A stretch of DNA of 64,000 bases from Bacteroidales bacterium (GCA_007125955.1 SLCF01000031.1:31637-95636), one strand, 5' to 3'. Counted from the stretch's first letter, positions 18,186-46,216 are shown. Notes: generated by a model not told the origin, from the sequence alone. A program made the numbers and translations.

Positions 18186-19262
18186 CTATTTATAGGTTTT
18201 GCTCTCTACTTTCCCGGTTAACACCATATAACCGTTCATTGCAAGTGACTTCATCTCATCTTCACCCGGATAAACAACTACGGGTGCAATGAAAGAAACC
18301 ATATCCCTTACATATTTTACAAGCATATCATTGTATGCTATTCCGCCGGTCAGAATAATAGCGTCAACCTTGCCTTTAAGCACGGCTGACATTGAGCCGA
18401 TCTCTTTTGAAACCTGGTATGACAATGCATCCTGGATGAGCGCTGCTTTTTCATCACCTTCTTTTGCACTTATTTCAACGTCATGTGCATTATTGGTATC
18501 AAGATAAGCCATGTAACCACCCTTTCCTGTTATCATTCTTTTTACCTCTTCCATTGTATAATCCCCACTGAAACAAGTGCTTACAAGAGCGCCGACAGGA
18601 AGTGTCCCCGACCTTTCAGGAGAAAAAGGCCCTTCCCCGTCAAGTGCATTGTTAACATCGATAACCCTGCCCCTGTTATGGGCGCCGACGGATATGCCCC
18701 CGCCCAGATGAACTACAATAAGGCTTAACTCTTCATATTCTCTGTTTGTTGTTTCTGAATAGGCACGTGCAACCGCTTTCTGGTTGAGGGCGTGAAATAT
18801 GCTCATCCTCTTGAATTTCGGATGGCCGCTTATCCTTGCCACTTCCTGCATCTCATCCACAACTACCGGGTCGGCTATAAAAGCCCTTGCACCATCCGTT
18901 CTGGAAGCAATTTCATAAGCAATCAATCCTCCCAGATTGCTCGCATGCTGACCGAGAAACCCTATTCTGAGATCCTCCATCATTTTCTGATTGACCTCGT
19001 ATACCCCTGATTCAATTGGTTTGACCAGTCCGCCTCTTCCGACTACAGCTGAAATATCATTTATGTCTGTACTGGCATTTTCAAGCTCTTTGAGGATAAT
19101 TTCCATCCTGAATTCATACTGATCGGATATATTTTTAAAAGGCTTGAGGTCTTCTGCGGAATGCTTTATATTCTTGAGAAAAACCGACTTGTTATTATTG
19201 TATAAGGCAATCTTAGTAGATGTGGAACCTGGATTGACAGCCAGAATTAACAGATCTTCCAT
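18186..19262 (-). CDS. buk: Butyrate kinase
   Basis: NPGSTSTK, GRGG, HASNLG, FHALNQKA, HLGGGISVG, PERSG, PGEDE. Confidence 0.95.
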   Translation of the reverse strand: MEDLLILAVNPGSTSTKIALYNNNKSVFLKNIKHSAEDLKPFKNISDQYEFRMEIILKELENASTDINDISAVVGRGGLVKPIESGVYEVNQKMMEDLRIGFLGQHASNLGGLIAYEIASRTDGARAFIADPVVVDEMQEVARISGHPKFKRMSIFHALNQKAVARAYSETTNREYEELSLIVVHLGGGISVGAHNRGRVIDVNNALDGEGPFSPERSGTLPVGALVSTCFSGDYTMEEVKRMITGKGGYMAYLDTNNAHDVEISAKEGDEKAALIQDALSYQVSKEIGSMSAVLKGKVDAIILTGGIAYNDMLVKYVRDMVSFIAPVVVYPGEDEMKSLAMNGYMVLTGKVESKTYK

Positions 19263-19427
19263 TGTAAAAAATTTGCTTTATGAATTTTAAAATTTTCTTT
19301 CTCTATTAAGATAAAAAACGATCGTTAACGCTTATAAGTATTCATTAAAACATTGGTCTTATTTATACTGCCGTAACAATATCTCATTCTGTTCTGCGAA
19401 GATATTGAAAATATCTTCCTGAACGAT

Positions 19428-20330
19428 TTATGCTGTTATCGCTGCAAGTGCAATTGAGTAAAGCTTGGTTTTTGATGTGTCTCCTCTTGAAGATAAAACC
19501 ACCGGAACCTTTGCTCCTACAACTATGGCTCCCTGTTCACCTGCTGCCAGCTTTGAATTAGTCTTGTAAAAAATATTACCCGATTCGATATTCGGAAACA
19601 AAAGGCAGTCAGCATCCCCTGCCACCTCACTTTTAATACCTTTGATATCAGCAGAAACCTTATCAACGGCAAGATCAAGCGCCAGCGGGCCCTCTACAAA
19701 TGCATTACCAAACCTTCCCCTCTCAGCCATTTTTGAAATGACAGCCGCATCTGTGCTGGCAGGCATATTGGGTGAAGGCTGCTCTGTTGCCGCTATCAGG
19801 GCTACCTTTGGCTTTTCTAAACCAATTGCCTTTGCGGTGTTTATAAGATGACATGTTTGTGCAATTTTCTGTTTCAGGTCGGGTAGAGGTATAATTGCCG
19901 CATCCGAGATTATCATCAATTTGTGATATACCGGGTTTTCTACAACAGCAACGTGACTAAGTATTTCGTTTGGCACCATCAGTCCGCTCTCCTTGTTGAG
20001 AATCGCTTTCATATATTTCTCCGTTCCAAGATTGCCCTTCATAATCATGTTGCCTTTCCCTTCATTGATGAGTGAAACAGACCTTTCAGCAGCTTCACTG
20101 TCCGATGATACCTGGTCAATGACAAACTTACCTGCATCTATATTAAGTTCTTCACACCTCTTCATTATAGTCTGCCGGTCACCAACCAGAGTTGCATAGA
20201 CAAGACCCAGATCAACCGCTTCATTTACTGCCTCTATAGTGTGGGCATCAACCGCCCAGGCAACAATAAGCCTCTTTTTTTCCTTATCCTTCAGAATACC
20301 AAATAGTTGTTCAAGTTTTTCAATAAGCAT
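19428..20330 (-). CDS. ptb: Phosphate butyryltransferase / phosphate acyltransferase
   Basis: MKG, SDAAI..P, EGPLALDLA, PNIESGN, SRGD; directly upstream of buk. Confidence 0.9.
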   Translation of the reverse strand: MLIEKLEQLFGILKDKEKKRLIVAWAVDAHTIEAVNEAVDLGLVYATLVGDRQTIMKRCEELNIDAGKFVIDQVSSDSEAAERSVSLINEGKGNMIMKGNLGTEKYMKAILNKESGLMVPNEILSHVAVVENPVYHKLMIISDAAIIPLPDLKQKIAQTCHLINTAKAIGLEKPKVALIAATEQPSPNMPASTDAAVISKMAERGRFGNAFVEGPLALDLAVDKVSADIKGIKSEVAGDADCLLFPNIESGNIFYKTNSKLAAGEQGAIVVGAKVPVVLSSRGDTSKTKLYSIALAAITA

Positions 20331-20394
20331 GCCCGTGTAAACTTTTAATTAAACAATTATACTGAATTATTTTGTTCGTTTCTCCTCTTAATGC

Positions 20395-20444
20395 AGTGAT
20401 AAAAAAAAATTACCAAAAGCTTACCTTTGGTAATTTTCTATCAC
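20395..20444 (-). terminator. Terminator after ackA
   Basis: 12-bp stem AAAATTACCAAA/TTTGGTAATTTT (20406-20437) with a T run on the minus strand. Confidence 0.7.
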
Positions 20445-20510
20445 GGGCTTCAAAAAGGCTGCCCGGTTAATAGTGCTATGTATAATTCCCAGTAGAGCAA
20501 AATCCTGATT

Positions 20511-21713
20511 TTACATTTTTGAAATGATCCTCTGTGTATCTTCGGCAATAACAAGCTCCTCATTTGTGGGAACAACCATTATTGTACCCTTTGAGTTATC
20601 CTTGCTTATTATTGCAGTTTCCCCCCGGAGGCCCTTGTTTATATCTTCATCCAGCTCCAGATTGAGGAATCCGAGATTTTCACATATCCCCCTTCTTGTA
20701 TTGCAGGCATTTTCTCCTATACCACCTGTGAATATAAGCAGATCGATTCCTCCCATTGCAGCGGAGTAGGCGCCTATATACTTTTTAACACGGTAATCAT
20801 ACATTTTCAGTCCCATTATTGCCCTTTTATTTTCTTTTTCTGCCTCAATCTCAATTTCCCGCATATCTGAAGATATACCGGTAACTCCGAGCATACCTGA
20901 CTGTTTGTTGATCAGGTTATTCACCGAGCCCAGATCGATCTTTTCCTTAGCCATTAAAAAGGTAAGAACACCCAGGTCAAGATCACCGGTACGGGTACCC
21001 ATTATCAAACCTTCCACAGGAGTAAACCCCATTGAAGTATCAACCGATTTGCCCCGGTCAATTGCTGCAAGTGAAGCACCGTTGCCAAGGTGACACGTAA
21101 TTATTTTCATCCCTTCAATATCCTTGCCAAGGAACTCACACGCCTTTTTTGCAACGAATTTGTGACTTGTCCCGTGAAAACCGTATCTGCGTACTGCGTA
21201 TTTTGTATAAAGCGAATAAGGAATGCCGTACATGTAGGCATAATCCGGCATAGTCTGGTGAAATGACGTGTCAAATACAGCCACCTGCCTTACACCGGGC
21301 AGAAGTGTACGCATTGCATTTATGCCTTTCAGGTTTGCAGGGTTGTGCAGCGGCGCCAGTTCACAACACTTCTCTATCTCACTGTAAGCGTAATCATCTA
21401 TGTAAGTGCTGTCACTGAACTTCTCTCCTCCGTGAGCCACCCTGTGACCAACAGCTTCTATTTCAGACAGGTTTTCAATGCATCCGTGTTTTTTGCTTGT
21501 AAGCACCCCCAGAACAAACTCTATGCCTATCTGGTGGTCTACTATTTCACCGTCAAACTGTACTTTTTCTCCCCCGGGTTTTTCCAGCTTCAGGAATGAT
21601 CCTTTAAGTCCTATCTTCTCAACAATCCCCTTCGCCAGCACATCCTTGGTTACCATGTTGAAAAGCTGATATTTAATTGATGAGCTTCCGCAGTTCAGAA
21701 CCAATATTTTCAT
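20511..21713 (-). CDS. ackA: Acetate kinase
   Basis: NCGSSS, GHRVAHGG, APLHNP, FDTSFH, YGFHGTSH, HLGNGAS, GGIGEN, PTNEE. Confidence 0.97.
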   Translation of the reverse strand: MKILVLNCGSSSIKYQLFNMVTKDVLAKGIVEKIGLKGSFLKLEKPGGEKVQFDGEIVDHQIGIEFVLGVLTSKKHGCIENLSEIEAVGHRVAHGGEKFSDSTYIDDYAYSEIEKCCELAPLHNPANLKGINAMRTLLPGVRQVAVFDTSFHQTMPDYAYMYGIPYSLYTKYAVRRYGFHGTSHKFVAKKACEFLGKDIEGMKIITCHLGNGASLAAIDRGKSVDTSMGFTPVEGLIMGTRTGDLDLGVLTFLMAKEKIDLGSVNNLINKQSGMLGVTGISSDMREIEIEAEKENKRAIMGLKMYDYRVKKYIGAYSAAMGGIDLLIFTGGIGENACNTRRGICENLGFLNLELDEDINKGLRGETAIISKDNSKGTIMVVPTNEELVIAEDTQRIISKM

Positions 21714-21748
21714 TGTATTGTATATTTTTTATCCTTGTTTTAAATCGT

Positions 21749-22720
21749 TTATTTGCAACCTTTAACCTTTTCTTCAATCTTTTTGCCATCCTTGTCGTAT
21801 TCATAAAAACCCCTGGAGGTTTTCATGCCCAGATGGTTTGCCCGCATGTACCTTTTTATTAGAGGATTGGGTTTGTAACGAACGTCTCCAAACTCTTTGT
21901 AAAGGCTCTCCATCCATTGCACTACTTTGTCAAGCCCGATCTTGTCAGCCATTTCAAAAGGTCCGTAATGTGTCCCGATACTTCTTTTGAGAACAGTATC
22001 CACATCCTCTTTTGAAGTAAGGTTTTCCATTACAACCTGGCACGCCTCATTGATTATTACAACGAAAAGCCTTACGCTCACCAGTCCGGGTGATTCGGTA
22101 ACCGTTATAACTTTTTTGTCGAGCATTTCTGCAAAAAGCAGGATTTTTTCATAAACCTCGTCAGAAGTATTAGGCCCGCGTGCCACTTCCAGTATCTTTG
22201 AATCGGGAGTAGTTGTGGAAAAATGTACTGTCAGGCACCTCCCTTTATGCTGAATATCCTCTGAAAGGTCTGTTATCGGAAGTGTTGCAGAATTGGTGAC
22301 AATAATTGTTTCCGGACCGACATGCTTTTCTATCTCACTAAACACTTCTTTTCTTGCTGTAATATTGTCTTTCTGATTTTTAGAAAGGATAGCATCGATC
22401 ACAAGGTCGCAATCCTTAAGGTCTTTATAGGAAACACTGCCTTTTATCCTTGAAAGTATACCCCTCTTCTCCCCTGCGGTCATTTTCCACTGTTCTATCA
22501 ACTGGTCAAGCTCCCTGCCCAACTCATCATATGCTTTTTTTACCAGGTGTTCGCTTTTTTCTACAAACACAACCTCAATGCCGCGGCGACTTATAATTCT
22601 TGCAATTGCCCTGCCTACAGTGCCACATCCTGCAAGACCAATTTTTGAGAACATTGATTTGGGTCTGTTATCCTTTGATAAACCATACTGTTCAATTGAT
22701 TCCTTTAATATATCTGCCAT
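21749..22720 (-). CDS. 3-hydroxyacyl-CoA dehydrogenase family protein with degenerate active site
   Basis: Rossmann GCGTVG and C-terminal GPFEMADKIGLD are present; the HFFNP motif reads HFSTT. Confidence 0.8.
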   Translation of the reverse strand: MADILKESIEQYGLSKDNRPKSMFSKIGLAGCGTVGRAIARIISRRGIEVVFVEKSEHLVKKAYDELGRELDQLIEQWKMTAGEKRGILSRIKGSVSYKDLKDCDLVIDAILSKNQKDNITARKEVFSEIEKHVGPETIIVTNSATLPITDLSEDIQHKGRCLTVHFSTTTPDSKILEVARGPNTSDEVYEKILLFAEMLDKKVITVTESPGLVSVRLFVVIINEACQVVMENLTSKEDVDTVLKRSIGTHYGPFEMADKIGLDKVVQWMESLYKEFGDVRYKPNPLIKRYMRANHLGMKTSRGFYEYDKDGKKIEEKVKGCK

Positions 22721-22754
22721 TGATTCGATTTATTTTTTTGATTTATATAAGATC

Positions 22755-23756
22755 TTAACTGTTTGCTGCCTGGTTCGCAGTGATGGCTGCCAGGTTTACT
22801 ATATCACTTACCGAACAGCCCCTGGAAAGATCGTTTATGGGAGCTGCCATTCCCTGCAGGACAGGTCCTATCGCTTCTGCACCTGCAAGTCTTTGTACAA
22901 GTTTGTATGCAATATTGCCCGACTCAAGACTTGGGAATATCAGCACATTTGCTTTCCCGGCAATTTCACTTCCGGGTGCTTTGCTGTTGCCCACCTTCTC
23001 CACAATGGCGGCATCAGCCTGAAGCTCTCCGTCAATCTTAAGATCCGGAGCCATCTCTTTTGCAATGCGTGTTGCATTAATCACTTTGTCAACCATCTCG
23101 TGTTTTGCACTTCCTTTGGTAGAAAAACTCAGCATGGCCACCCTGGGTTCAAATCCTGCAATAGCCTTTGCGGTACGGGCGGTAGCAACAGCTATTTCAG
23201 CCAACTCCTTTTCGTTGGGATCAGGATGAACCGCACAATCGGCAAATACAAGCATGCCGTCTTCACCATACCCGCCATTCTTGAGTATCATTATGAAAGC
23301 TCCTGAAACAACAGTGATGCCGGGCATAGTCTTTACATATTGAAATGCAGGCCTTAACACATCACCGGTTGCATTCATAGCACCTGCAACTTCACCGTCA
23401 GCATCACCCGCCTTTATCATAAGCGTTGAAAGATAAAGAGGGTTCTCTATCAGTTTTCCTGCTTCTTCACGTGTGAGACCTTTCTTTTTGCGTATCTCAA
23501 CCATCATATCTATATACTTCTCCTTGTTTGGATGATCTGCAGGATTTACAATTTCTGCTGCTGATATATTTGACAAACCAAGTTTTTTTGCCTCCTCTTC
23601 TATTTCCGGACGGTTTCCGATGAGTATTATTTTGGCTATCTTCTCACCAAGTAATACGTCGGCTGCTTTCAAAGTACGCTCCTCAAATGATTCCGGCAAC
23701 ACAATCCGTTTGGAATGCTGTTTGGCACTTATTTTGATTTTTTCCAGTAAATCCAT
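22755..23756 (-). CDS. pta: Phosphate acetyltransferase
   Basis: IVLPES, FADCAV.PDP, MLSFSTKGS, DGELQADAA, GNIAYKL, DLSRGC. Confidence 0.97.
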   Translation of the reverse strand: MDLLEKIKISAKQHSKRIVLPESFEERTLKAADVLLGEKIAKIILIGNRPEIEEEAKKLGLSNISAAEIVNPADHPNKEKYIDMMVEIRKKKGLTREEAGKLIENPLYLSTLMIKAGDADGEVAGAMNATGDVLRPAFQYVKTMPGITVVSGAFIMILKNGGYGEDGMLVFADCAVHPDPNEKELAEIAVATARTAKAIAGFEPRVAMLSFSTKGSAKHEMVDKVINATRIAKEMAPDLKIDGELQADAAIVEKVGNSKAPGSEIAGKANVLIFPSLESGNIAYKLVQRLAGAEAIGPVLQGMAAPINDLSRGCSVSDIVNLAAITANQAANS

Positions 23757-35090: not shown

Positions 35091-36356
35091 TCAGGCCTGA
35101 ATCTTTTCCTTTATCTTGTCAAGCGGCATCTTCGCCGCCATTCCGCTCTCTTCTATAGTCATGAATATTGCTTCAGTATCTACCAGTTTGGTATGCATGG
35201 CAAAGTAAAAAACAGCATAAAGACAGGCGGAGCGGGCACCGACAGAACGAAAATCCCTTTTTATTACCTCGGCTCCTGTTGACGGGGCATCCAGACTATC
35301 GTCCAGGAACAGCATCCCCCCCTTCATACCCTCGATACGTTTTTTGCTGTGAGTCAGTCCGTCTTCCGAAGTAATTATTGCCACATCGGGTACTCCTATA
35401 CCGTGAAAATTTATCGGTTCGGTTGAAATATTTACCTCTGCCGTTGAGAATCCTACACCAACAGTAACAGGATAGCTTCCCTTCTGTGTAACGTGGCATC
35501 CTGAACGCATAGCTGCTTTTGCAAGCAGTGTGGCGGCTGACTGTATGCCTTCCCCCGCAGAACCGCTTAAGACAAGCGAAAGGTTTCCCTTCAGGCGCGC
35601 AGGAAAGTCATTTTCCACCTCCTTCAACTCTTCCATCAGGTCGTTGCACTTTTTCCCCTGCTCAAGGACAAATCCTGTTCGCTCATTTTTCCATACTCCG
35701 GTCTTTCTCCCCGAAGATTCAACTATTTCAGCAAGCTTGCGGCGGGGATTGAGCTTCACTCCGTAGCTCGGACAAATCTCCATTATCTCTGTCAATGAAA
35801 ACCCTTCCACCGAAAAGGCTTCTGTTAGTTCCCCGGAAATATCTCCTACTCCCATAATCCTCGATGAATAGGCAGCTCCGGCAGTATGGGCAAGTTCACA
35901 AATATCGTATCCGGCAAAGGGATTCCCGTCAGCTGAGGTTGTTGTACAGAACCCTCTTGGGGTCAGTCCGCTTGTCTGTCCCCCGGTCATTCCGTAAAGC
36001 ATATTGTTGTGAACAACAACGCTCATATTCAGGTTAAGCCGGGCAGCTTCCATAATATGCTGCAAGCCTATTGTGGAACCGCCGTCGCCGATAAATACCA
36101 GCACTTTTTTACCGGGGTTTTCTATTCCGAAAGAGATGCCTGCGCCAAGTGCGACCGATCTTCCGTGCAAACCATGGACTGTGTGAGTGTTCAGGCATTT
36201 ATCAATTATACCGTGACAACCTATATCGGTTACAACTATAACGTCCAGCGGCGCGTATTCAAGCTTTTCAAGTGCTTCCGCACTCTTCTTTGCTATCAGG
36301 TCATGACCGCATCCCTTGCAGTAGGGTAATTGTGAAGTTTTTAAAAAACCGTTCAT
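35091..36356 (-). CDS. 2-oxoacid:ferredoxin oxidoreductase, fused beta (TPP-binding) and gamma subunit
   Basis: CKGCG, DIGC, HGR, GDGG, NN..YGMTGGQ and EICP, followed by a gamma-type domain (SGSAGEGIQSAA). ATG 36356 overlaps the alpha stop (ATGA). Confidence 0.85.
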   Translation of the reverse strand: MNGFLKTSQLPYCKGCGHDLIAKKSAEALEKLEYAPLDVIVVTDIGCHGIIDKCLNTHTVHGLHGRSVALGAGISFGIENPGKKVLVFIGDGGSTIGLQHIMEAARLNLNMSVVVHNNMLYGMTGGQTSGLTPRGFCTTTSADGNPFAGYDICELAHTAGAAYSSRIMGVGDISGELTEAFSVEGFSLTEIMEICPSYGVKLNPRRKLAEIVESSGRKTGVWKNERTGFVLEQGKKCNDLMEELKEVENDFPARLKGNLSLVLSGSAGEGIQSAATLLAKAAMRSGCHVTQKGSYPVTVGVGFSTAEVNISTEPINFHGIGVPDVAIITSEDGLTHSKKRIEGMKGGMLFLDDSLDAPSTGAEVIKRDFRSVGARSACLYAVFYFAMHTKLVDTEAIFMTIEESGMAAKMPLDKIKEKIQA

Positions 36357-37480
36357 ACACATTCCTCCTCGTTTAATATTTCCGGTGGTGTGATCATCCT
36401 GCCTGCTGAACCGACTATTGAAATACTGGAAGGTATCCTTGTACCAAACAGAAGGTCGGCAAACTGGGCATTGATATTCTCCTCGGCAATAACAACCTTT
36501 TTGTATTTGCCGATAATTTCTGAGTAAATAGCAGGTGCAGGGAGTATTGTCTTCGGAACAAGAAGTGATACCTTCTTACCCTTTTCACGCATCCGCTTCA
36601 CTGCATCCCTGGCTGCTGAAGCGGTTATGCCGTAGGATACCAGGAGTGTTCCGGCTCCTTCCTGCTCATCCAGCTCATAAAATGTGTATCCGGAAAGTGT
36701 TTCACGCGCTTTCCTTTCAAGACGCACTGTATTGCCAATCGCTTCATCATTTGAATGCTGCAGAATACCGTTTTTATCATGAGTGGAAGCATTCAGTCTG
36801 ACCTGCCATTTACCGGCTGTAACCGGCAGAAATGGAGGAACAAGCTCATCCCTTTCAACGTTATATGAACGGTAAGGCTCTTTTCCTCTGTAAAAAGATC
36901 TGCTTACAGGCTCAATGGCATCAAGCACTCCGGTACTGAAGCTTTTCTGTGTCATTACCTCCTCCTTTGAAGTAAGCAGAACAACGGGAGTTCTCAGCTC
37001 AACTGCCAGGTGCACGGCTTTCGCCGACAACTTCCAGCAATCATTGAAATCGGATGTGCAGAGAACGGGAAGCTGGTGTCCTCCCGATATCATCCCCTTC
37101 AAAAGGGGTATGTCACCCTGTGCTCCGCATGTTGCGGTACCGGTAGCCGGGCCAAGTCTCTGAACGAGGACTATAACCATTGGCAGCTCCATCATAAAAG
37201 CCATATTGACAGATTCGATCATTAATGCGAATCCCGGGAATGATGTGGCTGTTACAGGTATTTTTCCGGTAGCTGACAGCCCTGACATCCACTGCAAGGT
37301 GGTTATTTCATCAGGGGCAGACAACATAAGAGGCATCCTGCGGCTTGCGTACAAGTAGAGAAGGTTCGCCGGAGTGATAGGATACCCTATGAATGAATCG
37401 GCTCCTGCCCGGGCCATTGACTCTGTAATCAGCCTCGACCCGTCAATCAGCACCTTTCTTTCATTACTGGTCTTTTGCAT
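36353..37480 (-). CDS. 2-oxoacid:ferredoxin oxidoreductase alpha subunit
   Basis: GYPITP, DEI, ATS.PG, E.P, QR.GP.TG...QGD, and a C-terminal transketolase-like domain. Confidence 0.85.
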   Translation of the reverse strand: MQKTSNERKVLIDGSRLITESMARAGADSFIGYPITPANLLYLYASRRMPLMLSAPDEITTLQWMSGLSATGKIPVTATSFPGFALMIESVNMAFMMELPMVIVLVQRLGPATGTATCGAQGDIPLLKGMISGGHQLPVLCTSDFNDCWKLSAKAVHLAVELRTPVVLLTSKEEVMTQKSFSTGVLDAIEPVSRSFYRGKEPYRSYNVERDELVPPFLPVTAGKWQVRLNASTHDKNGILQHSNDEAIGNTVRLERKARETLSGYTFYELDEQEGAGTLLVSYGITASAARDAVKRMREKGKKVSLLVPKTILPAPAIYSEIIGKYKKVVIAEENINAQFADLLFGTRIPSSISIVGSAGRMITPPEILNEEECV

Positions 37481-38687
37481 ATATCACTTCTTTATTGATG
37501 AGTTGTTCAATTTGTTCATTTTTAATATTTAGCATACCCGACAATATACCTCTTGTATGTTCCCCGTAGTGGGGAGGACGCGGCAACTGCTCCCTGACGG
37601 AAATTTTATTGCAGCTGAAAGAGACGGAACGCACACCTTTTATTGTTCCTGATTTAGTCGGTGCTTCAAACAGCATCCCTTTTGCCTCAGGCGTCTCAAA
37701 AACCTCCTTCATATTATATACACCTCCCGCAGGCACTGCTTTCTCCCTCATCATTTCAAGTATCTCGCTTCTTCTGTATTTGCCTATCAGTTCCTGCAGT
37801 ATGGATTTGATCTCATCACCGTTCCGTACCCTGTCCTGGTTTTTCCTGAACCTGCTGTCATCTGCCAGGCCGGCTCTCCCGAGCAGCTTGCAAAGCTCCC
37901 TGAACTGCTTGTCAGTTCCTACAGCAATCACTATCTCCTTATCATCCGCCGTTCTGAAAATGGTTCCATACGGCACTATATTGGGATGATCGGAACCTAT
38001 CCTTTTGGGAATCGACCCTCCCACCAGCCAGTTTGTTGCCTGATTGGCAAGGGATGCTAAACCTGACTTGTAAAGGGACGATTCGATATACTGCCCCTCT
38101 CCATGCAGCTCACGGGAAAGAAGTCCGAGAAGTATAGCCTCCTTCAGCTGGTGTGCCGCCAGCACATCCATCAGTGCAACAGGCATCTTTGTCGGGTTGC
38201 CCCCGGGTTCGCCATTCATATATGTAAATCCGCTTTCAGCCTGAATAATGGCATCGTATCCCGCCCTTTTGTTATTCACTCCGTATCCGGTGATATGTGC
38301 AAAAATGATACGGGGGTTCAGCTTACTGAGAACCGGATAGTCCACTTTAAGCTTTTCCGCATCTCCCGGCTTGTAGCTTACAAGTACAATATCACACTTC
38401 TGCACCAGACTGTAAATAATATCCAGTCCTTCATCCTTTGTCAGATCTACTGCAAGCGAACGCTTTCCCCAGTTTACACAAGAGAAATAACCGGAGATGT
38501 CTGTTTCCGGATCCTCAGAAGAGAGTTTCCAGTGGCGGGTCACATCGCCGCAGCTTTTTATATTTTCGATTTTCAGAACATCTGCTCCCAGCTCTGCAAG
38601 GAACATCCCGACACTCGGGCCGGCCAGTACGTTTGCCAGTTCAAGTACGGTGATTCCTTCAAGGGGTAGTTTGGATCTTTTATCCAT
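37464..38687 (-). CDS. Family III (CaiB/BaiF) CoA-transferase
   Basis: LAGP...LAELGADVLKIE, NWGKRSL.VDL, GYDAIIQAESG, catalytic-Asp region ALMDVLAA, PP.YGEHT. Confidence 0.92.
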   Translation of the reverse strand: MDKRSKLPLEGITVLELANVLAGPSVGMFLAELGADVLKIENIKSCGDVTRHWKLSSEDPETDISGYFSCVNWGKRSLAVDLTKDEGLDIIYSLVQKCDIVLVSYKPGDAEKLKVDYPVLSKLNPRIIFAHITGYGVNNKRAGYDAIIQAESGFTYMNGEPGGNPTKMPVALMDVLAAHQLKEAILLGLLSRELHGEGQYIESSLYKSGLASLANQATNWLVGGSIPKRIGSDHPNIVPYGTIFRTADDKEIVIAVGTDKQFRELCKLLGRAGLADDSRFRKNQDRVRNGDEIKSILQELIGKYRRSEILEMMREKAVPAGGVYNMKEVFETPEAKGMLFEAPTKSGTIKGVRSVSFSCNKISVREQLPRPPHYGEHTRGILSGMLNIKNEQIEQLINKEVIYAKDQ

Positions 38688-38723
38688 AAGTTTAAATACT
38701 AATGATTATACAAATTTCCTCTT

Positions 38724-40187
38724 TTACACGCTGCTGTTTTTCCTTTTCAGGCGTGACCATAAGTTGCCCAGTATGATAAGTACTATTGCCGACCCTACTC
38801 CCACAAATGTGTCTTCTACGTCAAACCATCCCGCACCTTTGCCTATAATACTTATCAGAATTGCAACCGTTCCTCCGGCAAATGCAAACCGCACACCGTC
38901 AGAGGAAATCCAGCCTTTGAAATAGATGCCCATAATGATCACTATAGCTCCTATAGCCCTTATGGCATAGGAGATATATGCCGCATCCAGAACCTCCCTC
39001 TGGACGAATATGGCAAGGGGAATAACCACGAAATTTACCAGTATAACCAGTCTCCTGGCAGTCGTTATCACTTTCTGGTCAACCGCACTCTTGTTAATGA
39101 GCCCATGGTAGATATCCTTTGTGGCAATTGTAACAACGGCAAAGTTAACAGGTCCCACAGTAGAGAGGATGGCTGCCAAAACTCCTGCCAGTGCAAGCCC
39201 CCCAAGCACCGGGTGAATAAACTCCGGGGTGGTCATTAGAGTGGGAAGCACCATTTTTGCGTTCAGGGATTGTGTCAGCTCGTTCCAGAGCGGACTTGCG
39301 GGTCCTTCAACCGAAAAGAATATTCCGGTGCGCCCTATCAGTCCCAGTATTGCAACCATTATACCGAACGGTGCTATTATAAGGCTTGAGAGGATAGCAG
39401 CCTTTCTTGCTGTAGCGGCATTTCTTGCTGCAAATATGGGCTGAATACTTGCCTGACCTGCCATACCGCCAAGCACGCCTCCAATTACCAGACTGATTGC
39501 ATATGACATGTCCCCGCTGAACGGATTGTACCAGTTCTGAGGTGAACCAAGGTCAACGAGCTTTTCCGAAAGCGATCCGAAGCCACTTACCTTGTCAAGT
39601 CCGATTATAAGCGCAATACCTATTCCGGTGAACATTGCCACAACATGTATTATACCGGTAATGGCAAGTGCATGCATCCCGCCCACATATGTGTAGGCTG
39701 TAATGATAAGAGACGATATTAGCACCGCATTGACCCAGCTTATTTCAAACAGCGGACCAAGTACCGAAGCACAGGTCTGCAGCTGAACATATGAAAGGGC
39801 TATATATGCCAGTAAAAAAGCTACCGCCGAAACACTTTTGGTTCTGCGGCCAAACAGATGCTCAAGCATTTCGCTTACTGTATGAACGTTCTTTTCACGG
39901 TATTTTTTTGCAACTGTGAAGCCGATTATGATCATCCCCAGGGCCGTGGAAATATTATACAAAATGGGCTGCATGGTTCCCGAATTGAAAGAGTTTTCGC
40001 TTACTCCTATTGTGCTCATACCTCCAAGCCATTCGGATGCCACTACAACAGCACATGCAATAATTCCAAGGTTTCTTCCCGCAATCAGGTAATCAACGGA
40101 TGACCGGCTGGCTATTCTTTTGGTAAACAATGAAACAATTATAACAAAAAGAAAATAGCCCAGTATAACGGTAAGATATGTGTTCAT
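38724..40187 (-). CDS. Sodium:solute symporter (SSS family)
   Basis: About 13 TM segments; DYLIAGR, SEWLGGMSTIG, YVGGM, LAAILST. Start at ATG 40187. Confidence 0.9.
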   Translation of the reverse strand: MNTYLTVILGYFLFVIIVSLFTKRIASRSSVDYLIAGRNLGIIACAVVVASEWLGGMSTIGVSENSFNSGTMQPILYNISTALGMIIIGFTVAKKYREKNVHTVSEMLEHLFGRRTKSVSAVAFLLAYIALSYVQLQTCASVLGPLFEISWVNAVLISSLIITAYTYVGGMHALAITGIIHVVAMFTGIGIALIIGLDKVSGFGSLSEKLVDLGSPQNWYNPFSGDMSYAISLVIGGVLGGMAGQASIQPIFAARNAATARKAAILSSLIIAPFGIMVAILGLIGRTGIFFSVEGPASPLWNELTQSLNAKMVLPTLMTTPEFIHPVLGGLALAGVLAAILSTVGPVNFAVVTIATKDIYHGLINKSAVDQKVITTARRLVILVNFVVIPLAIFVQREVLDAAYISYAIRAIGAIVIIMGIYFKGWISSDGVRFAFAGGTVAILISIIGKGAGWFDVEDTFVGVGSAIVLIILGNLWSRLKRKNSSV

Positions 40188-40211
40188 TTTACACTGTTTA
40201 AATGCGCAATG

Positions 40212-40219
40212 CAAATCTA
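40212..40219 (-). promoter_or_regulatory. -7 element (TAGATTTG) for the SSS-CaiB-OFOR unit
   Basis: Exact TAnnTTTG 25 nt upstream of ATG 40187. Confidence 0.5.
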
Positions 40220-40284: not shown

Positions 40285-43227
40285 CTATTCACTTAACAGT
40301 GCGTCGAAGAGGATCTCAACAGGGTGCAATGCCTTCCTTCCGGTACCGTCAAGAATATGCACACGGCAGCTTGTACCGTTTGCGGCAATAATTGCACTGC
40401 CGGATGCGGAACGTATTTCCGGAAAAAGTACCGTTTCACCAATTTTCATTGAAAGATCATAATGCTCTTTTTCATAACCGAAAGAGCCTGCCATACCGCA
40501 GCATCCCGAAGGAATCTCTTCAGCGGTGTAATTTTCCGGACAGGAGAGCATTTTTAAGGTATCAGCTGTAGATGAGAGGGCTTTCTGCTGGCAATGGCCG
40601 TGCAGCAATATTCCTGCCCGGGCAGTTGTAAAAACCTCCTTTGTAATATTACCCCTGTCAATTTCCCTGCTTATGAACTCATCTATCAGCATTGCCGACC
40701 CAGCAAGTTTTTTCGCCTTCTCTTTCAGCTCCACACCTGCAAGATCGGGATACTCATCACGAAGTGAAAGTATTGCCGAGGGTTCAATACCCACTAAAGG
40801 TATATTCTCATATTCATCATCACTCAAAATACGAATGTTTTCCCTTGCTATGCCGGCAGCCCTCCTTAGCAGTCCCTTTGATATCAAAGCCCTTCCGCTC
40901 TGATGGTGGCGTGGCATCTCCACACTGTACCCGAGCGATGAAAGCAGTCTGATGGCGGCTATACCTACATGAACGTCGTTGTAACAGGTGAATTCGTCTG
41001 TAAAAATTCTGACCCTGCCCTTTTCCCCCGGCACAACCGGTCCGGAAAGGTTCCTTTCAGCCCATTTCCACATTGTGGTCTCCCCTATCAAAGGGAGGCT
41101 GCGTTCAGGGGCAAAACCTGCAATCCTCTTGACCAGTAGGGATGAAAGGCGGTTTCTCAGAAAAAAATTGAATGGTGCAGGCCAGAGTGAGCCCATACGG
41201 TTAAAGATTGTCAATCCGGCAATCAGCCTTACCCGGAAAGGTATGCCTTCTTTATCGTAGTAATGCTGCAGGAACTCAGTTTTAAGTTTTGCCATATCTA
41301 CCCCGGAAGGGCACTCCGATTTGCAACCTTTGCAAAGAATGCACAAGTCCATTACCTTCAGAACATCATTCCTTTCCACCATAGCTCCTTCCGGCCCGCC
41401 TGTCAGGTACTCCCTCAAAATATTTGCCCTTGCACGGGTGGTATCGGTTTCTTCGCGTGTAGCCATGTAGCTGGGACACATAACCCCGCCTGAACCTTCA
41501 GTTTTTCTGCAGTCACCTGAACCGTTACACTTTTCCGCGGCACGAAGGAATCCGGCGGTTGCAGAAAAATTGTAAACTGTTTGCGGTTCCCGGTGCTCTT
41601 TTCCCGGCTCATACCTCAGGTGTGTATCCATGGGTGGCGTGGAAGTTATCTTTCCGGGATTAAAAACGTTACCGGGATCCCAGCACTCCTTCACACGGCA
41701 AAGCAGTTCATGGTTTTTACTGCCCAGCACAACAGGGATAAACTCACCTCTCAGCCTGCCGTCACCATGTTCTCCGCTCAGCGATCCCCGGTGCTTCTTA
41801 ACCAGCAGTGCCACTTCATATGCCAGTTTTCTGAAAATCTTTACATCTTCCGGATCCTTCAGGTTAAGGACAGGACGGAGATGCAGCTCACCCGAGCCTA
41901 TATGGGCATGGTAGACACATTCTTTCCCGTAACGTGAAAGTATCCTGCGGAAACCGGAAATGTAAGCGGGGATTTCCCTCACATCCACGGCGGTATCCTC
42001 TATAACCGAAACAGGACGGGCATCCCCTTTCATATTTGAGAGAACACCAAGGGCGGCTTTCCGGAGATTCCAGACACGGTTAATATCTTCTCCCGTAATA
42101 ACCGGAAAATAGTAGCCGTAACCTTCATCGCGCATCTCTTTTTCAATGTTACCGGCTTTTTCCTTAACTTCTTCCGTTGAATTCCCTGCCAGTTCCACAA
42201 TTAGGATTGCCCCGGGATCTCCCTTTATAAAAAAACGATTTGCCGCCTGCTCCCTGTTCTCTTTGGTGAAGTGAAGAACCGTCCTGTCCATCAACTCTAC
42301 AGCATACGGATTGTGGCGAAGCACCGTCAGATTGGCACTGAACACATTTTCAAGCTTCTCCATATGTATGCATACCAGTGCCTTTACCGGCGGTGGAAGC
42401 GGCACAAGTGCAACCTTCAGCTCAGTGGTAAACGCCAGTGTTCCTTCGGAACCTGCAAGAAGTGAACAAAAATTGAACTGTTTACCGCCCCCGGTAAAGG
42501 GGACGGTATCCAGCAACATATCAAGCGCATATCCGGTATTCCTTCTTTTAACTTCGGGCGCCGGAAACTCCCTTCTGATCTCCTCCCTTATAACCGGATT
42601 GGATAAAATTTCCCCTGCTTGACGATATATGCGTCCCTCCAGTGTGCCGGGAATACACTTTTCCTCAAAACCTTCCTTATCAAGGGGCATAAACTGAGCC
42701 TCCGTCCCGTCACTCAATACTACATTCATCCCGATAAGATGGTCGCGGGTACTTCCATAAACAAGCGAACGGGAGCCGCACGAATTGTTTCCCGCCATCC
42801 CTCCTATTACACAACGGTTGGATGTAGATGTATCGGGGGCAAAAAACAGTCCGTATCTGTGCAGATATCTGTTAAGGTCGTCCAGAACAACACCGGGCTG
42901 CACCCTCACCCATTTTTCGTCTTCATTTACCTCAAGGATCCTGTTCATATGACGGGATATATCTGCAACTATACCGTTACCGACAACCTGTCCGGCCAGC
43001 GAAGTGCCACCACCTCTTGGTATAACCGTGAGTCTTCTCAGAGAAGCAAAGCGTATAAGATGCACTACATCAGCAGCATCAACAGGAGTACATACTGCCA
43101 GCGGGATCTCCCTGTAAACAGAAGCATCTGTAGCATACATCAATCTTGCTGAGGCAGAAGTATCAATTTCTCCCCTGAACCTGCTTTTCAGCTCTGAAAA
43201 ATCCTCATATATCAGTTTATCCGACAT
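40285..43227 (-). CDS. FAD- and Fe-S-binding oxidoreductase (YdiJ/D-2-hydroxyacid dehydrogenase-like)
   Basis: PRGGGTSLAGQ, GSEGTL, GEHGDG, CNGSGDC, CILCKGCKSECP, HGHC, CCGMAGSFG. Confidence 0.88.
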   Translation of the reverse strand: MSDKLIYEDFSELKSRFRGEIDTSASARLMYATDASVYREIPLAVCTPVDAADVVHLIRFASLRRLTVIPRGGGTSLAGQVVGNGIVADISRHMNRILEVNEDEKWVRVQPGVVLDDLNRYLHRYGLFFAPDTSTSNRCVIGGMAGNNSCGSRSLVYGSTRDHLIGMNVVLSDGTEAQFMPLDKEGFEEKCIPGTLEGRIYRQAGEILSNPVIREEIRREFPAPEVKRRNTGYALDMLLDTVPFTGGGKQFNFCSLLAGSEGTLAFTTELKVALVPLPPPVKALVCIHMEKLENVFSANLTVLRHNPYAVELMDRTVLHFTKENREQAANRFFIKGDPGAILIVELAGNSTEEVKEKAGNIEKEMRDEGYGYYFPVITGEDINRVWNLRKAALGVLSNMKGDARPVSVIEDTAVDVREIPAYISGFRRILSRYGKECVYHAHIGSGELHLRPVLNLKDPEDVKIFRKLAYEVALLVKKHRGSLSGEHGDGRLRGEFIPVVLGSKNHELLCRVKECWDPGNVFNPGKITSTPPMDTHLRYEPGKEHREPQTVYNFSATAGFLRAAEKCNGSGDCRKTEGSGGVMCPSYMATREETDTTRARANILREYLTGGPEGAMVERNDVLKVMDLCILCKGCKSECPSGVDMAKLKTEFLQHYYDKEGIPFRVRLIAGLTIFNRMGSLWPAPFNFFLRNRLSSLLVKRIAGFAPERSLPLIGETTMWKWAERNLSGPVVPGEKGRVRIFTDEFTCYNDVHVGIAAIRLLSSLGYSVEMPRHHQSGRALISKGLLRRAAGIARENIRILSDDEYENIPLVGIEPSAILSLRDEYPDLAGVELKEKAKKLAGSAMLIDEFISREIDRGNITKEVFTTARAGILLHGHCQQKALSSTADTLKMLSCPENYTAEEIPSGCCGMAGSFGYEKEHYDLSMKIGETVLFPEIRSASGSAIIAANGTSCRVHILDGTGRKALHPVEILFDALLSE

Positions 43228-43320: not shown

Positions 43321-43788
<468 letters not shown>

Positions 43789-43799
43789 TTAGATTAAAG

Positions 43800-45623
43800 T
43801 TAAATTAATTTTCTGTAAGGATTATATTGTTTACCGCCACCGGAAAAACCGGCATTCTTGTAAAACTCAACAAAAGTAAGACGGAGCGGATGGACGAATG
43901 ATCCGAGTCCAGACATGAATATATTGATACTGTGGCCAATAATAAGTATTATAACCATAATAAGTATGTTCAGAACGGGTATACTTCCGCTCATGGCTAC
44001 TGCAAGGCTGTTGAACACATAGCCCAGAATAGCGCTCGATACCCCGAGTGCAAAAAGCCTTATATAGGAAAGCAGGTCTCCGAGAACACCGGTAACCATG
44101 TTGTATGTGTTCCACAGTCCGATCCCGAAATTCATTGCAATATTCCTGTTGAGGTTATTTAAAAAGAGGATCAGTAACCCGCCAACAGCCAGAACGACAT
44201 AATAGGCAATTTTGAGAGCTTCCTGGGAGAGTGATGTAACCTCGCCGGTAATATACACTGTAACAAGTCCGGTAAGCAGAAAAATCCACCCGATTGTCCC
44301 GACTGCCTGCTTCCACCCAAACTGCATCGATTCATTGACAGCCTTCAGCACCAGTCCAAACAGTATCTGTATGCCGCCTAGCATAAGTGACAAATAGAAA
44401 AGCACACTGTTAATGTCGGTTCCCTGTGCATCAAAATACTGCTGCATTGACGAATAGAAAGGAAGGTTGGTTTCATAAAGGGGTATTCCGAAAAACGTAC
44501 CGCTTATAATTCCGAAAAAGATTGTTGCCAGTCCGAGATAAAAAACAAGCGTCATAACCTGCTTTAATTCCTTGCCCACCCTGCCTTTGGCAATCTGGGC
44601 ACCGACAGCCATCAGTATTCCGTACCCCGCATCTCCAAGGCAAAAACCAAAAAAGAGGGCGTAAAAAGGTGCAAAAAACGGGGTCATATCCAGTTCGGTA
44701 TATTTAGGCAATGAGTAAAGCTCGCTAAGCACCTCGAACTTCGCGGGGAACTTTTTGTTTTTGAGCTGAATAGGCACTTTTTCAACCTCCTTGTCTGAGG
44801 GAGTGGAAGTAAAATAAACAGCACCGGTTTCATCGAGGTACTTGTTAATCTCTTCAACCTTTACCTCAGGTACCCATCCTTCCAGCACCATAAGCTTTTC
44901 ATCCGCCTCCCTTTCCGTATTGAGCACGGTTTTTTCATCCTCAAGCTTCTCTATAAGAGATGCTTTGTAATGCTCCAGAGCGGGTATCGCGCTTTTTGCA
45001 AGACTTTCAAACCTCTTTTCAATCTTTTCAATCTCTTTTTCCGTTTCATCATTGACCTTGAGAACTTCAGAAAGAGATTTTTTTGGCTTCCTTATCTCTT
45101 CGGCCTCAATTTCAACTTTTTCACCCTCCCTTTCTATGGCAACAAAGTAAATAGTGCCTGCCTCGGAACTTATCTCCTCAATATTGTATTTCTCTTTCCA
45201 TTGCGGATCAAACAGCCTTGCCTGTGATAGAAAAAACCTGATCCTGATACCGTTCTCCTCCAGTTTGTTTACCAGGTCAAGCGAAAAGTCACCCCAGTGC
45301 CTCAGTTCGTTGATCTCTTTGCGCATAGCCTTCAGCATATGCTTTTTCTGCTCCTGCTCCTGCTGAAGAGATTTTATCTCTTCGAACAACTCCCCGCCTT
45401 CCTTCTTTGGCTTTGGATTTCCGGGTTCAACCTCCCTTCTCCTGAGAAACTTTATACTTTTTTCAACACTGTCAATCTCCTGGTACTGTTCTCTTAACTC
45501 CTCCGGCACTTCCGGCTCCTTTTCAATTATATGGAGTACTCCTACATCCTTGATCTTCTCAAGGAACTCTTCATATTCCTGGTGATATACAAGGAATGAA
45601 TATTTTTTCATGGGGGTTATCAT
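43800..45623 (-). CDS. ntpI: V/A-type ATPase subunit I (a)
   Basis: LP.Y.E.D.TP, GDAGYG, SYIRLFALG, H.LRL.FVEF. Confidence 0.93.
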   Translation of the reverse strand: MITPMKKYSFLVYHQEYEEFLEKIKDVGVLHIIEKEPEVPEELREQYQEIDSVEKSIKFLRRREVEPGNPKPKKEGGELFEEIKSLQQEQEQKKHMLKAMRKEINELRHWGDFSLDLVNKLEENGIRIRFFLSQARLFDPQWKEKYNIEEISSEAGTIYFVAIEREGEKVEIEAEEIRKPKKSLSEVLKVNDETEKEIEKIEKRFESLAKSAIPALEHYKASLIEKLEDEKTVLNTEREADEKLMVLEGWVPEVKVEEINKYLDETGAVYFTSTPSDKEVEKVPIQLKNKKFPAKFEVLSELYSLPKYTELDMTPFFAPFYALFFGFCLGDAGYGILMAVGAQIAKGRVGKELKQVMTLVFYLGLATIFFGIISGTFFGIPLYETNLPFYSSMQQYFDAQGTDINSVLFYLSLMLGGIQILFGLVLKAVNESMQFGWKQAVGTIGWIFLLTGLVTVYITGEVTSLSQEALKIAYYVVLAVGGLLILFLNNLNRNIAMNFGIGLWNTYNMVTGVLGDLLSYIRLFALGVSSAILGYVFNSLAVAMSGSIPVLNILIMVIILIIGHSINIFMSGLGSFVHPLRLTFVEFYKNAGFSGGGKQYNPYRKLI

Positions 45624-46216
45624 AGCGCCACCTCCTGTTGTCTGCTTTTTACAATTTTCTGTGCCGATTTGGAAAGGTTCTCCTCGTCTTCGAGAAAACG
45701 TTTCACCTTGAGAATGGCATCCTCGTAACCGGGTATCTGTACTTTTTCATACAGGTTCACCTTCTGTGTTGTCTTTTTCCTCGCATAATCAAGCAGCTTC
45801 ATTTTGCGGTAAAAGAAATCACGCTCCATTACCAGCTTTGAAAGGCTTTTAAGTATTTCTATCCCGTCCAGGAACCAGTCGGGTTCACTGAAAAGGCTGA
45901 AGTCACTAACCTCAAAATGAATATCTTCCAGAACAGGCGTTAAAACTCCCGCTATCTTCTTAATTGACGAGTCCACTTTCTTGATCTTAACTATTTCAGG
46001 GTCAAACTCGCACCAAAGACGCATCATGTATTCATACTCCCTGATTTTTTTCTCCAGCTTAGCATCAAGCGCTTCCGCCTGGTCTTTCGCCTTTTTAACC
46101 TCCATGCGCAGTGCCGATTCCTTATTCTTGATGGTCGGCAGTGCTTTAACCCTCATATTGAGCTGTTTGTTCAGCTCCTGCAGGGAGGTCTTGTTATATT
46201 GAAACTTGATAGCCAT
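45620..46216 (-). CDS. ntpD: V/A-type ATPase subunit D
   Basis: LPTIKNKE.ALR, KKTTQKVNLYEKVQIP; position within the operon. Confidence 0.93.
   Translation of the reverse strand: MAIKFQYNKTSLQELNKQLNMRVKALPTIKNKESALRMEVKKAKDQAEALDAKLEKKIREYEYMMRLWCEFDPEIVKIKKVDSSIKKIAGVLTPVLEDIHFEVSDFSLFSEPDWFLDGIEILKSLSKLVMERDFFYRKMKLLDYARKKTTQKVNLYEKVQIPGYEDAILKVKRFLEDEENLSKSAQKIVKSRQQEVAL

Follow-up and report, generated by a model that had tools for sequence, protein, structure and literature searches.

A conserved four-gene cassette of Bacteroidales that may couple a proposed ferredoxin-dependent 2-oxoadipate oxidoreductase to glutarate release

What might a bacterium gain from a compact block of genes that joins a sodium:solute symporter (SSS), a family III coenzyme A (CoA)-transferase, and a 2-oxoacid:ferredoxin oxidoreductase (OFOR) of unusual sequence? 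This question is raised by a 64,000-nt stretch of DNA from a Bacteroidales bacterium (GCA_007125955.1 SLCF01000031.1:31637-95636; hereafter, the window), which comes from soda-lake or alkaline sediments and whose genome is ~91% complete. The original prediction for this locus had described four same-strand genes whose junctions are a gap of 36 nt and overlaps of 17 nt and of ATGA. They were proposed to form a dedicated route for the uptake and decarboxylation of an organic acid or amino-acid derivative with recycling of CoA, a combination not recognised as a named pathway. The coordinates of the open reading frames (ORFs) confirmed this layout throughout: on the minus strand, at 35091-40187 of the window, the genes for the SSS symporter, the CoA-transferase, OFOR alpha, and OFOR beta-gamma follow one another, with the gap between the SSS stop and the CoA-transferase start, the longer overlap at the CoA-transferase/alpha junction, and the ATGA (36353-36356) at the alpha/beta-gamma junction. 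The predicted list was right as regards these four genes but had overlooked two features, the fusion of beta to gamma in the last gene and, 66 nt upstream, a YdiJ-like gene on the same strand. The proposed route is supported by the co-occurrence of the genes elsewhere and by the non-standard class of the OFOR, and we suggest that it may begin with 2-oxoadipate and end with glutarate. The cassette is unnamed but conserved.

Both OFOR proteins have the features by which the superfamily is recognised. The alpha subunit, which matches 1yd7 (1.1e-40) and 8ys5_A (3.3e-36) in the PDB, has the folds of domains I and II, the YPITP motif at residues 32-36 (with Thr35), and the carboxylate-binding Arg108 in QRLGPATG. 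The beta-gamma protein (PF02775, residues 46-192; PF01558, residues 269-366) has the thiamine pyrophosphate (TPP)/Mg motif (GDGG 90-93 and NN 117-118), four Cys residues for the proximal [4Fe-4S] cluster (Cys13, Cys16, Cys47, and Cys195), and domain III (gamma); an alignment of 33 diverse homologues shows the four Cys and GDGG...NN to be wholly or almost wholly conserved. In an AlphaFold2 model of this protein (mean predicted local distance difference test score 91.9), the N-terminal half matches H. pylori OorB (8ys5_C) with a template modelling (TM) score of 0.75, and the C-terminal half matches the free gamma subunits 3on3 and 8ys5_B with TM scores of 0.72-0.73. Because the Cys and TPP motifs are conserved and no ferredoxin-like delta domain was found in the beta-gamma protein, the cofactors of the enzyme should, judging from its sequence, be TPP and one [4Fe-4S] cluster, with an external ferredoxin as the electron acceptor.

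The same OFOR fits none of the standard KOR, POR, and VOR classes, in agreement with the original prediction, which had called it divergent. All NCBIfam models score far below their cut-offs, i.e. the KOR models for alpha (NF007206, 160 bits vs 579; TIGR03710, 228 vs 483) and beta (NF007207, 137.5 bits vs 364) as well as VorB (137 bits vs 399), PorA (40 vs 550), IOR alpha (27 vs 651), and OOR beta (24 vs 590); moreover, alpha retains YPITP and not the OOR-type YPIRP. Because the genome separately encodes a PFOR, a canonical KOR-type enzyme (gamma-alpha + beta), and a VOR-like enzyme, the cassette OFOR is an additional paralogue and not the housekeeping enzyme. The two motifs previously singled out as non-standard, YPITPANL and QRLGPATGTATCGAQGD, are present but not special to this locus, being conserved family-wide: all alphas of the family have QR[LQ]GP[AS]TGxAT..[AG][QE][GD]D instead of QRxGPSTGxPT, and the inner clade to which the window belongs (34/81 rows) also has APDEITxLQWM and TATSFPG, with TSFPG replacing TSGPG.

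A residue in the beta part bears on the substrate. In StOFOR1 of Sulfolobus tokodaii, Lys49b is needed for activity on 2-oxoglutarate and the K49I mutant loses that activity (PMC5020499). The equivalent position comes after GCSG in beta. H. pylori OorB and the KorB of the host genome both carry Arg there, whereas the cassette protein has Ile50 and 81/81 family members have Ile or Leu. Carried over from one family to another, this comparison argues against 2-oxoglutarate as the substrate.

To which 2-oxoacid does the family point instead? A profile-free search of 1.8 billion representatives gave ~100 diverse clusters sharing the beta-gamma layout, and a scan of GTDB representatives gave 80 loci from many phyla, whose neighbour genes were clustered and the recurrent clusters annotated. 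The window locus is one of many instances of this alpha + beta-gamma family, which spans Bacteroidota, Chloroflexota, Planctomycetota, Acidobacteriota, Desulfobacterota, and other phyla. Within six genes of the OFOR, lysine/aminoadipate or glutaryl-CoA genes are present in 23 of the 77 representative loci and glutaryl-CoA dehydrogenase (GcdH) in 11, compared with well under one such adjacency expected by chance for a single-copy gene among the few thousand genes of a genome according to our own estimate, for which there was no control set. The identity of these neighbours is clear-cut in several cases: for the GcdH cluster, the match to Burkholderia GCDH (3eom) reaches 7.5e-137 and that to human GCDH 1e-123, vs 1e-75 for the best other acyl-CoA dehydrogenase; an L-piperideine-6-carboxylate (P6C) dehydrogenase, adjoined by a class III aminotransferase, scores 804.7 bits against a cut-off of 730; and a homoaconitase (TIGR00139), accompanied by a homoisocitrate-dehydrogenase-like gene, scores 880 bits against 530. 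The recurrent neighbour enzymes all make 2-oxoadipate or consume glutaryl-CoA. The genome-neighbourhood check that accompanied the original prediction led further than that prediction had gone, pointing to 2-oxoadipate and glutaryl-CoA as the probable chemistry.

Individual loci and the phylogeny of the OFOR point the same way. In a metagenome-assembled genome (MAG) of Brocadiia, which has the SSS-CoA-transferase-OFOR cassette (L030), a saccharopine dehydrogenase gene follows the OFOR after 14 nt in an operonic arrangement. In a Desulfobacterium MAG (L105, 8893-16352) the order is OFOR alpha, beta-gamma, GcdH, a small ORF, Na+-translocating decarboxylase beta, and carboxyltransferase, with P6C dehydrogenase upstream of this run, which would be a complete route from 2-oxoadipate to crotonyl-CoA with a sodium pump. 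An Anaerolineales MAG has the order GcdH, 3-hydroxybutyryl-CoA dehydrogenase, CoA-transferase, OFOR, GcdH. In a maximum-likelihood tree the window clade has L030 as its sister and then L032, a Bacteroidales operon of the order GcdH-alpha-beta-gamma, and the next clade out (six rows) consists of five GcdH-adjacent members and an SSS-CoA-transferase locus (L023); supports are 95-98 in the Shimodaira-Hasegawa-like approximate likelihood ratio test. Among 41 relatives of the host, true GcdH orthologues (>=70% identity) are present in only three, and all three bear the OFOR.

Two other gene arrangements were seen in the family. An alphaproteobacterial MAG (L063, 8829-13907) has tandem OFORs, alpha/beta-gamma followed by gamma-alpha (573 aa) and beta (278 aa), with GcdH nearby. 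In Ignavibacteriota and other MAGs (L048, 8862-14886; L068, 4431-18180; L058; L070) the OFOR stands with homoaconitase and a homoisocitrate-dehydrogenase-like gene, in sets that also hold an ADP-forming acyl-CoA synthetase, a family I CoA-transferase, and a SucC-like gene and that may form a route linking glutarate/glutaryl-CoA, 2-oxoadipate, and 2-oxoglutarate + acetyl-CoA.

The other two proteins of the cassette can be assigned to families, and candidate substrates can be proposed for them. The CoA-transferase matches PF02515 at 1.8e-97 (residues 9-378) and human SUGCT (9br7) at 2.5e-64, and its Asp174 aligns with the catalytic Asp region of PDB homologues, as in family III. Its best NCBIfam model is the succinate--glutarate CoA-transferase NF052585 with 294.5 bits, the next model reaching 203 bits, and by these comparisons it is closest to succinate:glutarate CoA-transferases of the SUGCT type. 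SUGCT, a dicarboxyl-CoA:dicarboxylate transferase, has succinate and glutarate as its preferred substrates (PMC10871334). The symporter matches PF00474 at 3.9e-36 (residues 42-433) and scores far under the equivalog cut-offs of PutP (84 bits vs 515), PanF (71 vs 328), and ActP (44 vs 1099); its proposed substrate is the C6 acid. A search for SSS orthologues in 400 sampled genomes of the phylum found no further genome with this symporter and no substrate hint.

Together, these observations suggest a model of Na+-coupled uptake of a C6 acid, conversion of 2-oxoadipate to glutaryl-CoA with reduction of ferredoxin, and CoA transfer with release of glutarate, which we hold with moderate confidence. 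Specifically, the SSS protein would import 2-oxoadipate or a close precursor (e.g. 2-aminoadipate) together with Na+. The OFOR, whose family, fold, and cofactor motifs are described above, would then convert 2-oxoadipate + CoA to glutaryl-CoA + CO2 + reduced ferredoxin, making it an anaerobic counterpart of the 2-oxoadipate dehydrogenase complex. Finally, the CoA-transferase would use Asp174 to move CoA from glutaryl-CoA to succinate or acetate, so that the energy of the thioester is retained in the acceptor-CoA for ATP formation; acetyl-CoA, for example, could feed the pta-ackA genes of the window. Because no GcdH was found in the host genome, as in most of its family, glutarate would be the released end product. 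Relatives with ptb-buk or an ADP-forming acyl-CoA synthetase in place of the transferase fit the same logic. The window itself has, at 18186-23756 on the minus strand, pta, a 3-hydroxyacyl-CoA dehydrogenase-like gene, ackA, ptb, and buk, whose products could take acyl-CoA made by the transferase.

Several points weigh against this model. What each of the three proteins acts on, which way the flux runs, and which acid accepts the CoA are inferred, and the assignment of 2-oxoadipate derives wholly from the gene neighbourhood of the OFOR family, in which 54 of the 77 loci have no informative neighbour. By alignment alone, no basic pocket residue for the distal carboxylate was identified. The CoA-transferase is well under the equivalog cut-off of NF052585 (294.5 vs 750 bits). 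The host genome yielded neither an orthologue of P6C dehydrogenase nor a clear path from lysine to 2-oxoadipate; at the given completeness of the genome the absence of GcdH is not certain, but GcdH is also absent in most relatives. Saccharopine dehydrogenase was considered as a co-occurrence marker and is uninformative because its homologues, present in 25 of the 41 relatives, also occur in genomes without the OFOR; the host's own saccharopine-dehydrogenase-like gene is on a 5.3-kb contig with no useful neighbours. Ptb and Buk usually act on monocarboxylic acyl-CoAs, and ptb-buk adjoins the OFOR in the close relatives L036, L094, and L033, which could mean that the substrates in some clades are monocarboxylic.

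A rival possibility is that the OFOR uses another 2-oxoacid, either 2-oxoglutarate as a second KOR, a broad range of acids, or monocarboxylic/branched-chain acids, and that the CoA-transferase recycles CoA from succinyl-CoA or another acyl-CoA. Such a function would agree with the best sequence and fold matches of the OFOR, which are KOR/Oor-type subunits, and with the ptb and buk genes of the three relatives; also, SUGCT-type transferases use succinyl-CoA (PMC10871334), and OFOR specificity is often broad (PMC5020499, PMC13768988). Nevertheless, the genome already has canonical KOR-type and VOR-like enzymes, the cassette OFOR falls far under the cut-offs of all KOR and VOR models, the Lys/Arg position that StOFOR1 needs for 2-oxoglutarate is Ile/Leu family-wide, and the neighbours across phyla are specific to glutaryl-CoA/aminoadipate and not to the tricarboxylic acid cycle or branched-chain acids. 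On balance, we judge another 2-oxoacid to be unlikely.

The original prediction that the four genes belong together was borne out by their co-occurrence across genera, families, and phyla. The order SSS-CoA-transferase-alpha-beta-gamma is kept in three genera of the host family and in another Bacteroidales family, while the outer flanks vary by genus, the SecA and V-ATPase flank being restricted to the genus of the window. The same order is found in the Brocadiia MAG, and SSS-alpha-beta-gamma is found in four further lineages; the SSS gene is directly upstream of the OFOR in L030, L033, L036, L040, and L094. Co-occurrence is strict in the 41 relatives: the beta-gamma OFOR is present in 21 genomes, and orthologues of the CoA-transferase (19/41) and of the SSS symporter (17/41) are confined to OFOR-bearing genomes, the gaps that lower their counts relative to the OFOR falling at contig ends. 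In one genome of the sister genus (G010) the four-gene block is absent and the YdiJ-like gene runs directly into the usual downstream flank. In another relative, the SSS orthologue (G019:C100:4990-6407) has in-frame TGA and TAA stops and is in two pieces, which decay of the cassette or an assembly error could explain.

The cassette also appears to have its own promoter, as predicted originally, in that a Bacteroidetes-type -7 element, TAGATTTG (TAnnTTTG), was located upstream of the SSS gene on the minus strand. Across the entire window this motif shows no enrichment (51 matches observed vs 56 expected). Of 10 family relatives, however, 8 have it no more than 120 nt ahead of their SSS gene, mostly as TTAG[ACT]TTTG; at this distance it is present in none of three non-Bacteroidota loci. 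Scans for sigma-70 promoters and terminators gave weak consensus matches only, with none between the YdiJ-like and SSS genes; because no terminator-like site precedes the -7 box on the side of the YdiJ-like gene, read-through from that gene is possible. No riboswitch or other RNA element was found at the locus, and the only RNA elements that a scan of eight related loci revealed were two tRNAs and an unrelated S-adenosylmethionine riboswitch. In a soda-lake sediment metatranscriptome, the OFOR and CoA-transferase genes are matched by contigs of identical sequence, and cover of the SSS gene and the upstream gene is patchier; contig depth is a poor measure of expression, however, and carry-over of DNA is possible. 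With middling confidence, we read the four genes as a single transcription unit, served by its own promoter, whose products make up a self-contained module that gains energy from a C6 dicarboxylic 2-oxoacid.

Another reading of the locus is a route of five genes, in which the YdiJ-like enzyme oxidises imported D-2-hydroxyadipate or D-2-hydroxyglutarate to the 2-oxoacid used by the OFOR. The YdiJ-like protein has the GlcD-like FAD (flavin adenine dinucleotide) and GlpC-like Fe-S domains of E. coli YdiJ and scores 615.5 bits against NF049975, below the cut-off of 1350. YdiJ and P. putida PP_4493 are D-2-hydroxyglutarate dehydrogenases (PMC9504171, PMC12297413), and PP_4493 acts in lysine catabolism (PMC9504171, PMC12297413, bioRxiv 10.1101/450254), and the YdiJ-like gene is on the same strand and close to the cassette, with no terminator-like site between them, and this adjacency is kept in three genera despite differing outer flanks. 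This reading is weakened because the YdiJ-like gene is distributed independently of the OFOR, with orthologues of 51-61% identity in 31 of the 41 relatives, many of them without an OFOR, because it stays in place in the sister-genus genome in which the cassette alone is missing, and because no YdiJ-like homologue is near the OFOR in any of 80 loci from other lineages. Furthermore, the conserved -7 box lies between the YdiJ-like and SSS genes, and cover by RNA contigs, a weak measure, is lower over the YdiJ-like gene than over the OFOR and CoA-transferase genes. A five-gene unit is, therefore, distinctly unlikely, and the YdiJ-like dehydrogenase is probably a widespread Bacteroidales gene and a resident neighbour of the cassette. 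Further upstream, a V-type ATPase operon (subunits K, I, D, and others; 43321-46216 on the minus strand of the window and beyond) directly precedes the YdiJ-like gene. In the sister genus (g2; L019, 314-1312), the YdiJ-like gene and the cassette are preceded, at a distance of two genes, by one for an NAD (nicotinamide adenine dinucleotide)-dependent D-isomer-specific 2-hydroxyacid dehydrogenase.

Assimilation of glutarate in the reverse direction, with the SSS protein importing glutarate, the CoA-transferase making glutaryl-CoA, and the OFOR carboxylating it reductively to 2-oxoadipate, would make use of the reversibility of OFORs and of a transferase of the type used in glutarate activation, and the loci with homoaconitase, the homoisocitrate-dehydrogenase-like gene, and ADP-forming acyl-CoA synthetase could join 2-oxoadipate to 2-oxoglutarate + acetyl-CoA, but we consider it very improbable given that the host has no homoisocitrate-dehydrogenase-like homologue and only weak, LeuCD-like homoaconitase matches, and therefore no onward route for 2-oxoadipate, that GcdH-adjacent relatives fit the oxidative direction, and that Ptb-Buk beside relatives suggest a gain of ATP from acyl-CoA.

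The coordinates of the cassette and its upstream neighbour are listed in Table 1. Two gene starts differ from the longest ORFs. The SSS ORF extends to a first TTG at 40214 (ORF finder, 38724-40214); because the alignments of relatives begin at the residue encoded by the ATG at 40187, this ATG is the predicted true start. Similarly, the beta-gamma ORF runs to 36362 from its first ATG and to 36356 from its second, and the ATGA overlap with alpha follows from the alignment of relatives from the second.

Table 1 Positions of the cassette genes, the -7 box, and the upstream neighbour in the window
Feature	Position	Strand	Basis or remark
Bacteroidetes-type -7 box TAGATTTG	40212..40219	-	25 nt before SSS ATG 40187
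SSS sodium:solute symporter, 487 aa from ATG 40187	38724..40187	-	PF00474
Family III CoA-transferase, SUGCT/succinate:glutarate type, 407 aa	37464..38687	-	PF02515, catalytic Asp174
OFOR alpha subunit, 375 aa, domains I + II	36353..37480	-	PF01855 + PF17147
OFOR beta-gamma fusion, 421 aa	35091..36356	-	PF02775 + PF01558
YdiJ-like FAD/Fe-S D-2-hydroxyacid dehydrogenase, 980 aa, upstream neighbour, unit membership doubtful	40285..43227	-	PF01565, PF02913, Fer4

What would it mean if the assignment of the OFOR to 2-oxoadipate were correct? Lysine and tryptophan breakdown pass through 2-oxoadipate, and to our knowledge the only well-known enzyme converting 2-oxoadipate to glutaryl-CoA is the lipoate/NAD-dependent complex of aerobes. 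A full-text literature search found no description of a ferredoxin-dependent 2-oxoadipate oxidoreductase, and the OFOR classes in recent reviews comprise only those for pyruvate, 2-oxoglutarate, 2-ketoisovalerate, indolepyruvate, and oxalate (PMC13768988). We regard it as evenly balanced whether the alpha + beta-gamma family is the missing anaerobic 2-oxoadipate:ferredoxin oxidoreductase, packaged in this soda-lake lineage with a dedicated Na+ symporter and a glutaryl-CoA CoA-transferase as a stand-alone module that would ferment a lysine-derived C6 acid to glutarate, with a gain of reduced ferredoxin and a conserved thioester. If it is, the family would account for the formation or use of glutaryl-CoA in strict anaerobes and fill a gap in anaerobic lysine/glutarate metabolism; it would be a sixth OFOR substrate class, after pyruvate, 2-oxoglutarate, branched-chain, aromatic, and oxalate; and the generic labels 'KorA/KorB' or 'thiamine pyrophosphate-dependent enzyme' on its homologues in many phyla would be corrected. 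From the cassette, glutarate would be expected among the fermentation products of alkaline, saline sediments; as a compact module of three functions (uptake, decarboxylation, and CoA recycling), the cassette is potentially useful for the production of glutarate or glutaryl-CoA.

Compared with two- and four-subunit OFORs of known structure, i.e. H. pylori OorDABC (8ys5), the Magnetococcus OGOR (6n2n), and StOFOR1/2 (5b46-5b48), the cassette OFOR has the same TPP-dependent fold, the Thr of YPITP and the carboxylate-binding Arg in alpha, the domain III/gamma fold, and the four Cys for one [4Fe-4S] cluster together with GDG...NN in beta; like StOFOR and OGOR, it has no internal ferredoxin domain (PMC5020499). 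It differs from the known KOR/OFORs in that gamma is fused to the C-terminus of beta instead of being fused to the N-terminus of alpha or free, in the QR[LQ]GP[AS]TGxAT of alpha in place of QRxGPSTGxPT, and in having Ile/Leu where KOR and StOFOR carry Arg/Lys, with neighbours that point to a C6 substrate. The net chemistry proposed for it, 2-oxoadipate + CoA -> glutaryl-CoA + CO2 upstream of GcdH, is that of the 2-oxoadipate dehydrogenase complex (E1a DHTKD1 with E2o/E3), which belongs to an unrelated class, being a lipoate/NAD-dependent multi-enzyme complex whereas the OFOR is ferredoxin-linked and of an oxygen-sensitive type; the likeness would be one of functional analogy. The YdiJ-like neighbour shares the FAD + Fe-S/CCG architecture of E. 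coli YdiJ and PP_4493 over its full length. SUGCT (C7orf10) and the bacterial succinyl-CoA:glutarate CoA-transferases (NF052585), the best-scoring characterised subfamily (PMC10871334), share with the cassette transferase the family III fold and the catalytic Asp; in contrast to SUGCT, the direction proposed for the cassette enzyme is from glutaryl-CoA to glutarate, in a terminal, energy-conserving step. As a whole, the cassette follows the logic of amino-acid fermentation in archaea and clostridia, in which an IOR, VOR, or KOR acts together with an ADP-forming synthetase or Ptb-Buk to turn a 2-oxoacid into acyl-CoA and then ATP while the acid is excreted; it would differ from those modules in replacing the synthetase or kinase pair with a family III CoA-transferase and in adding a dedicated Na+ symporter.

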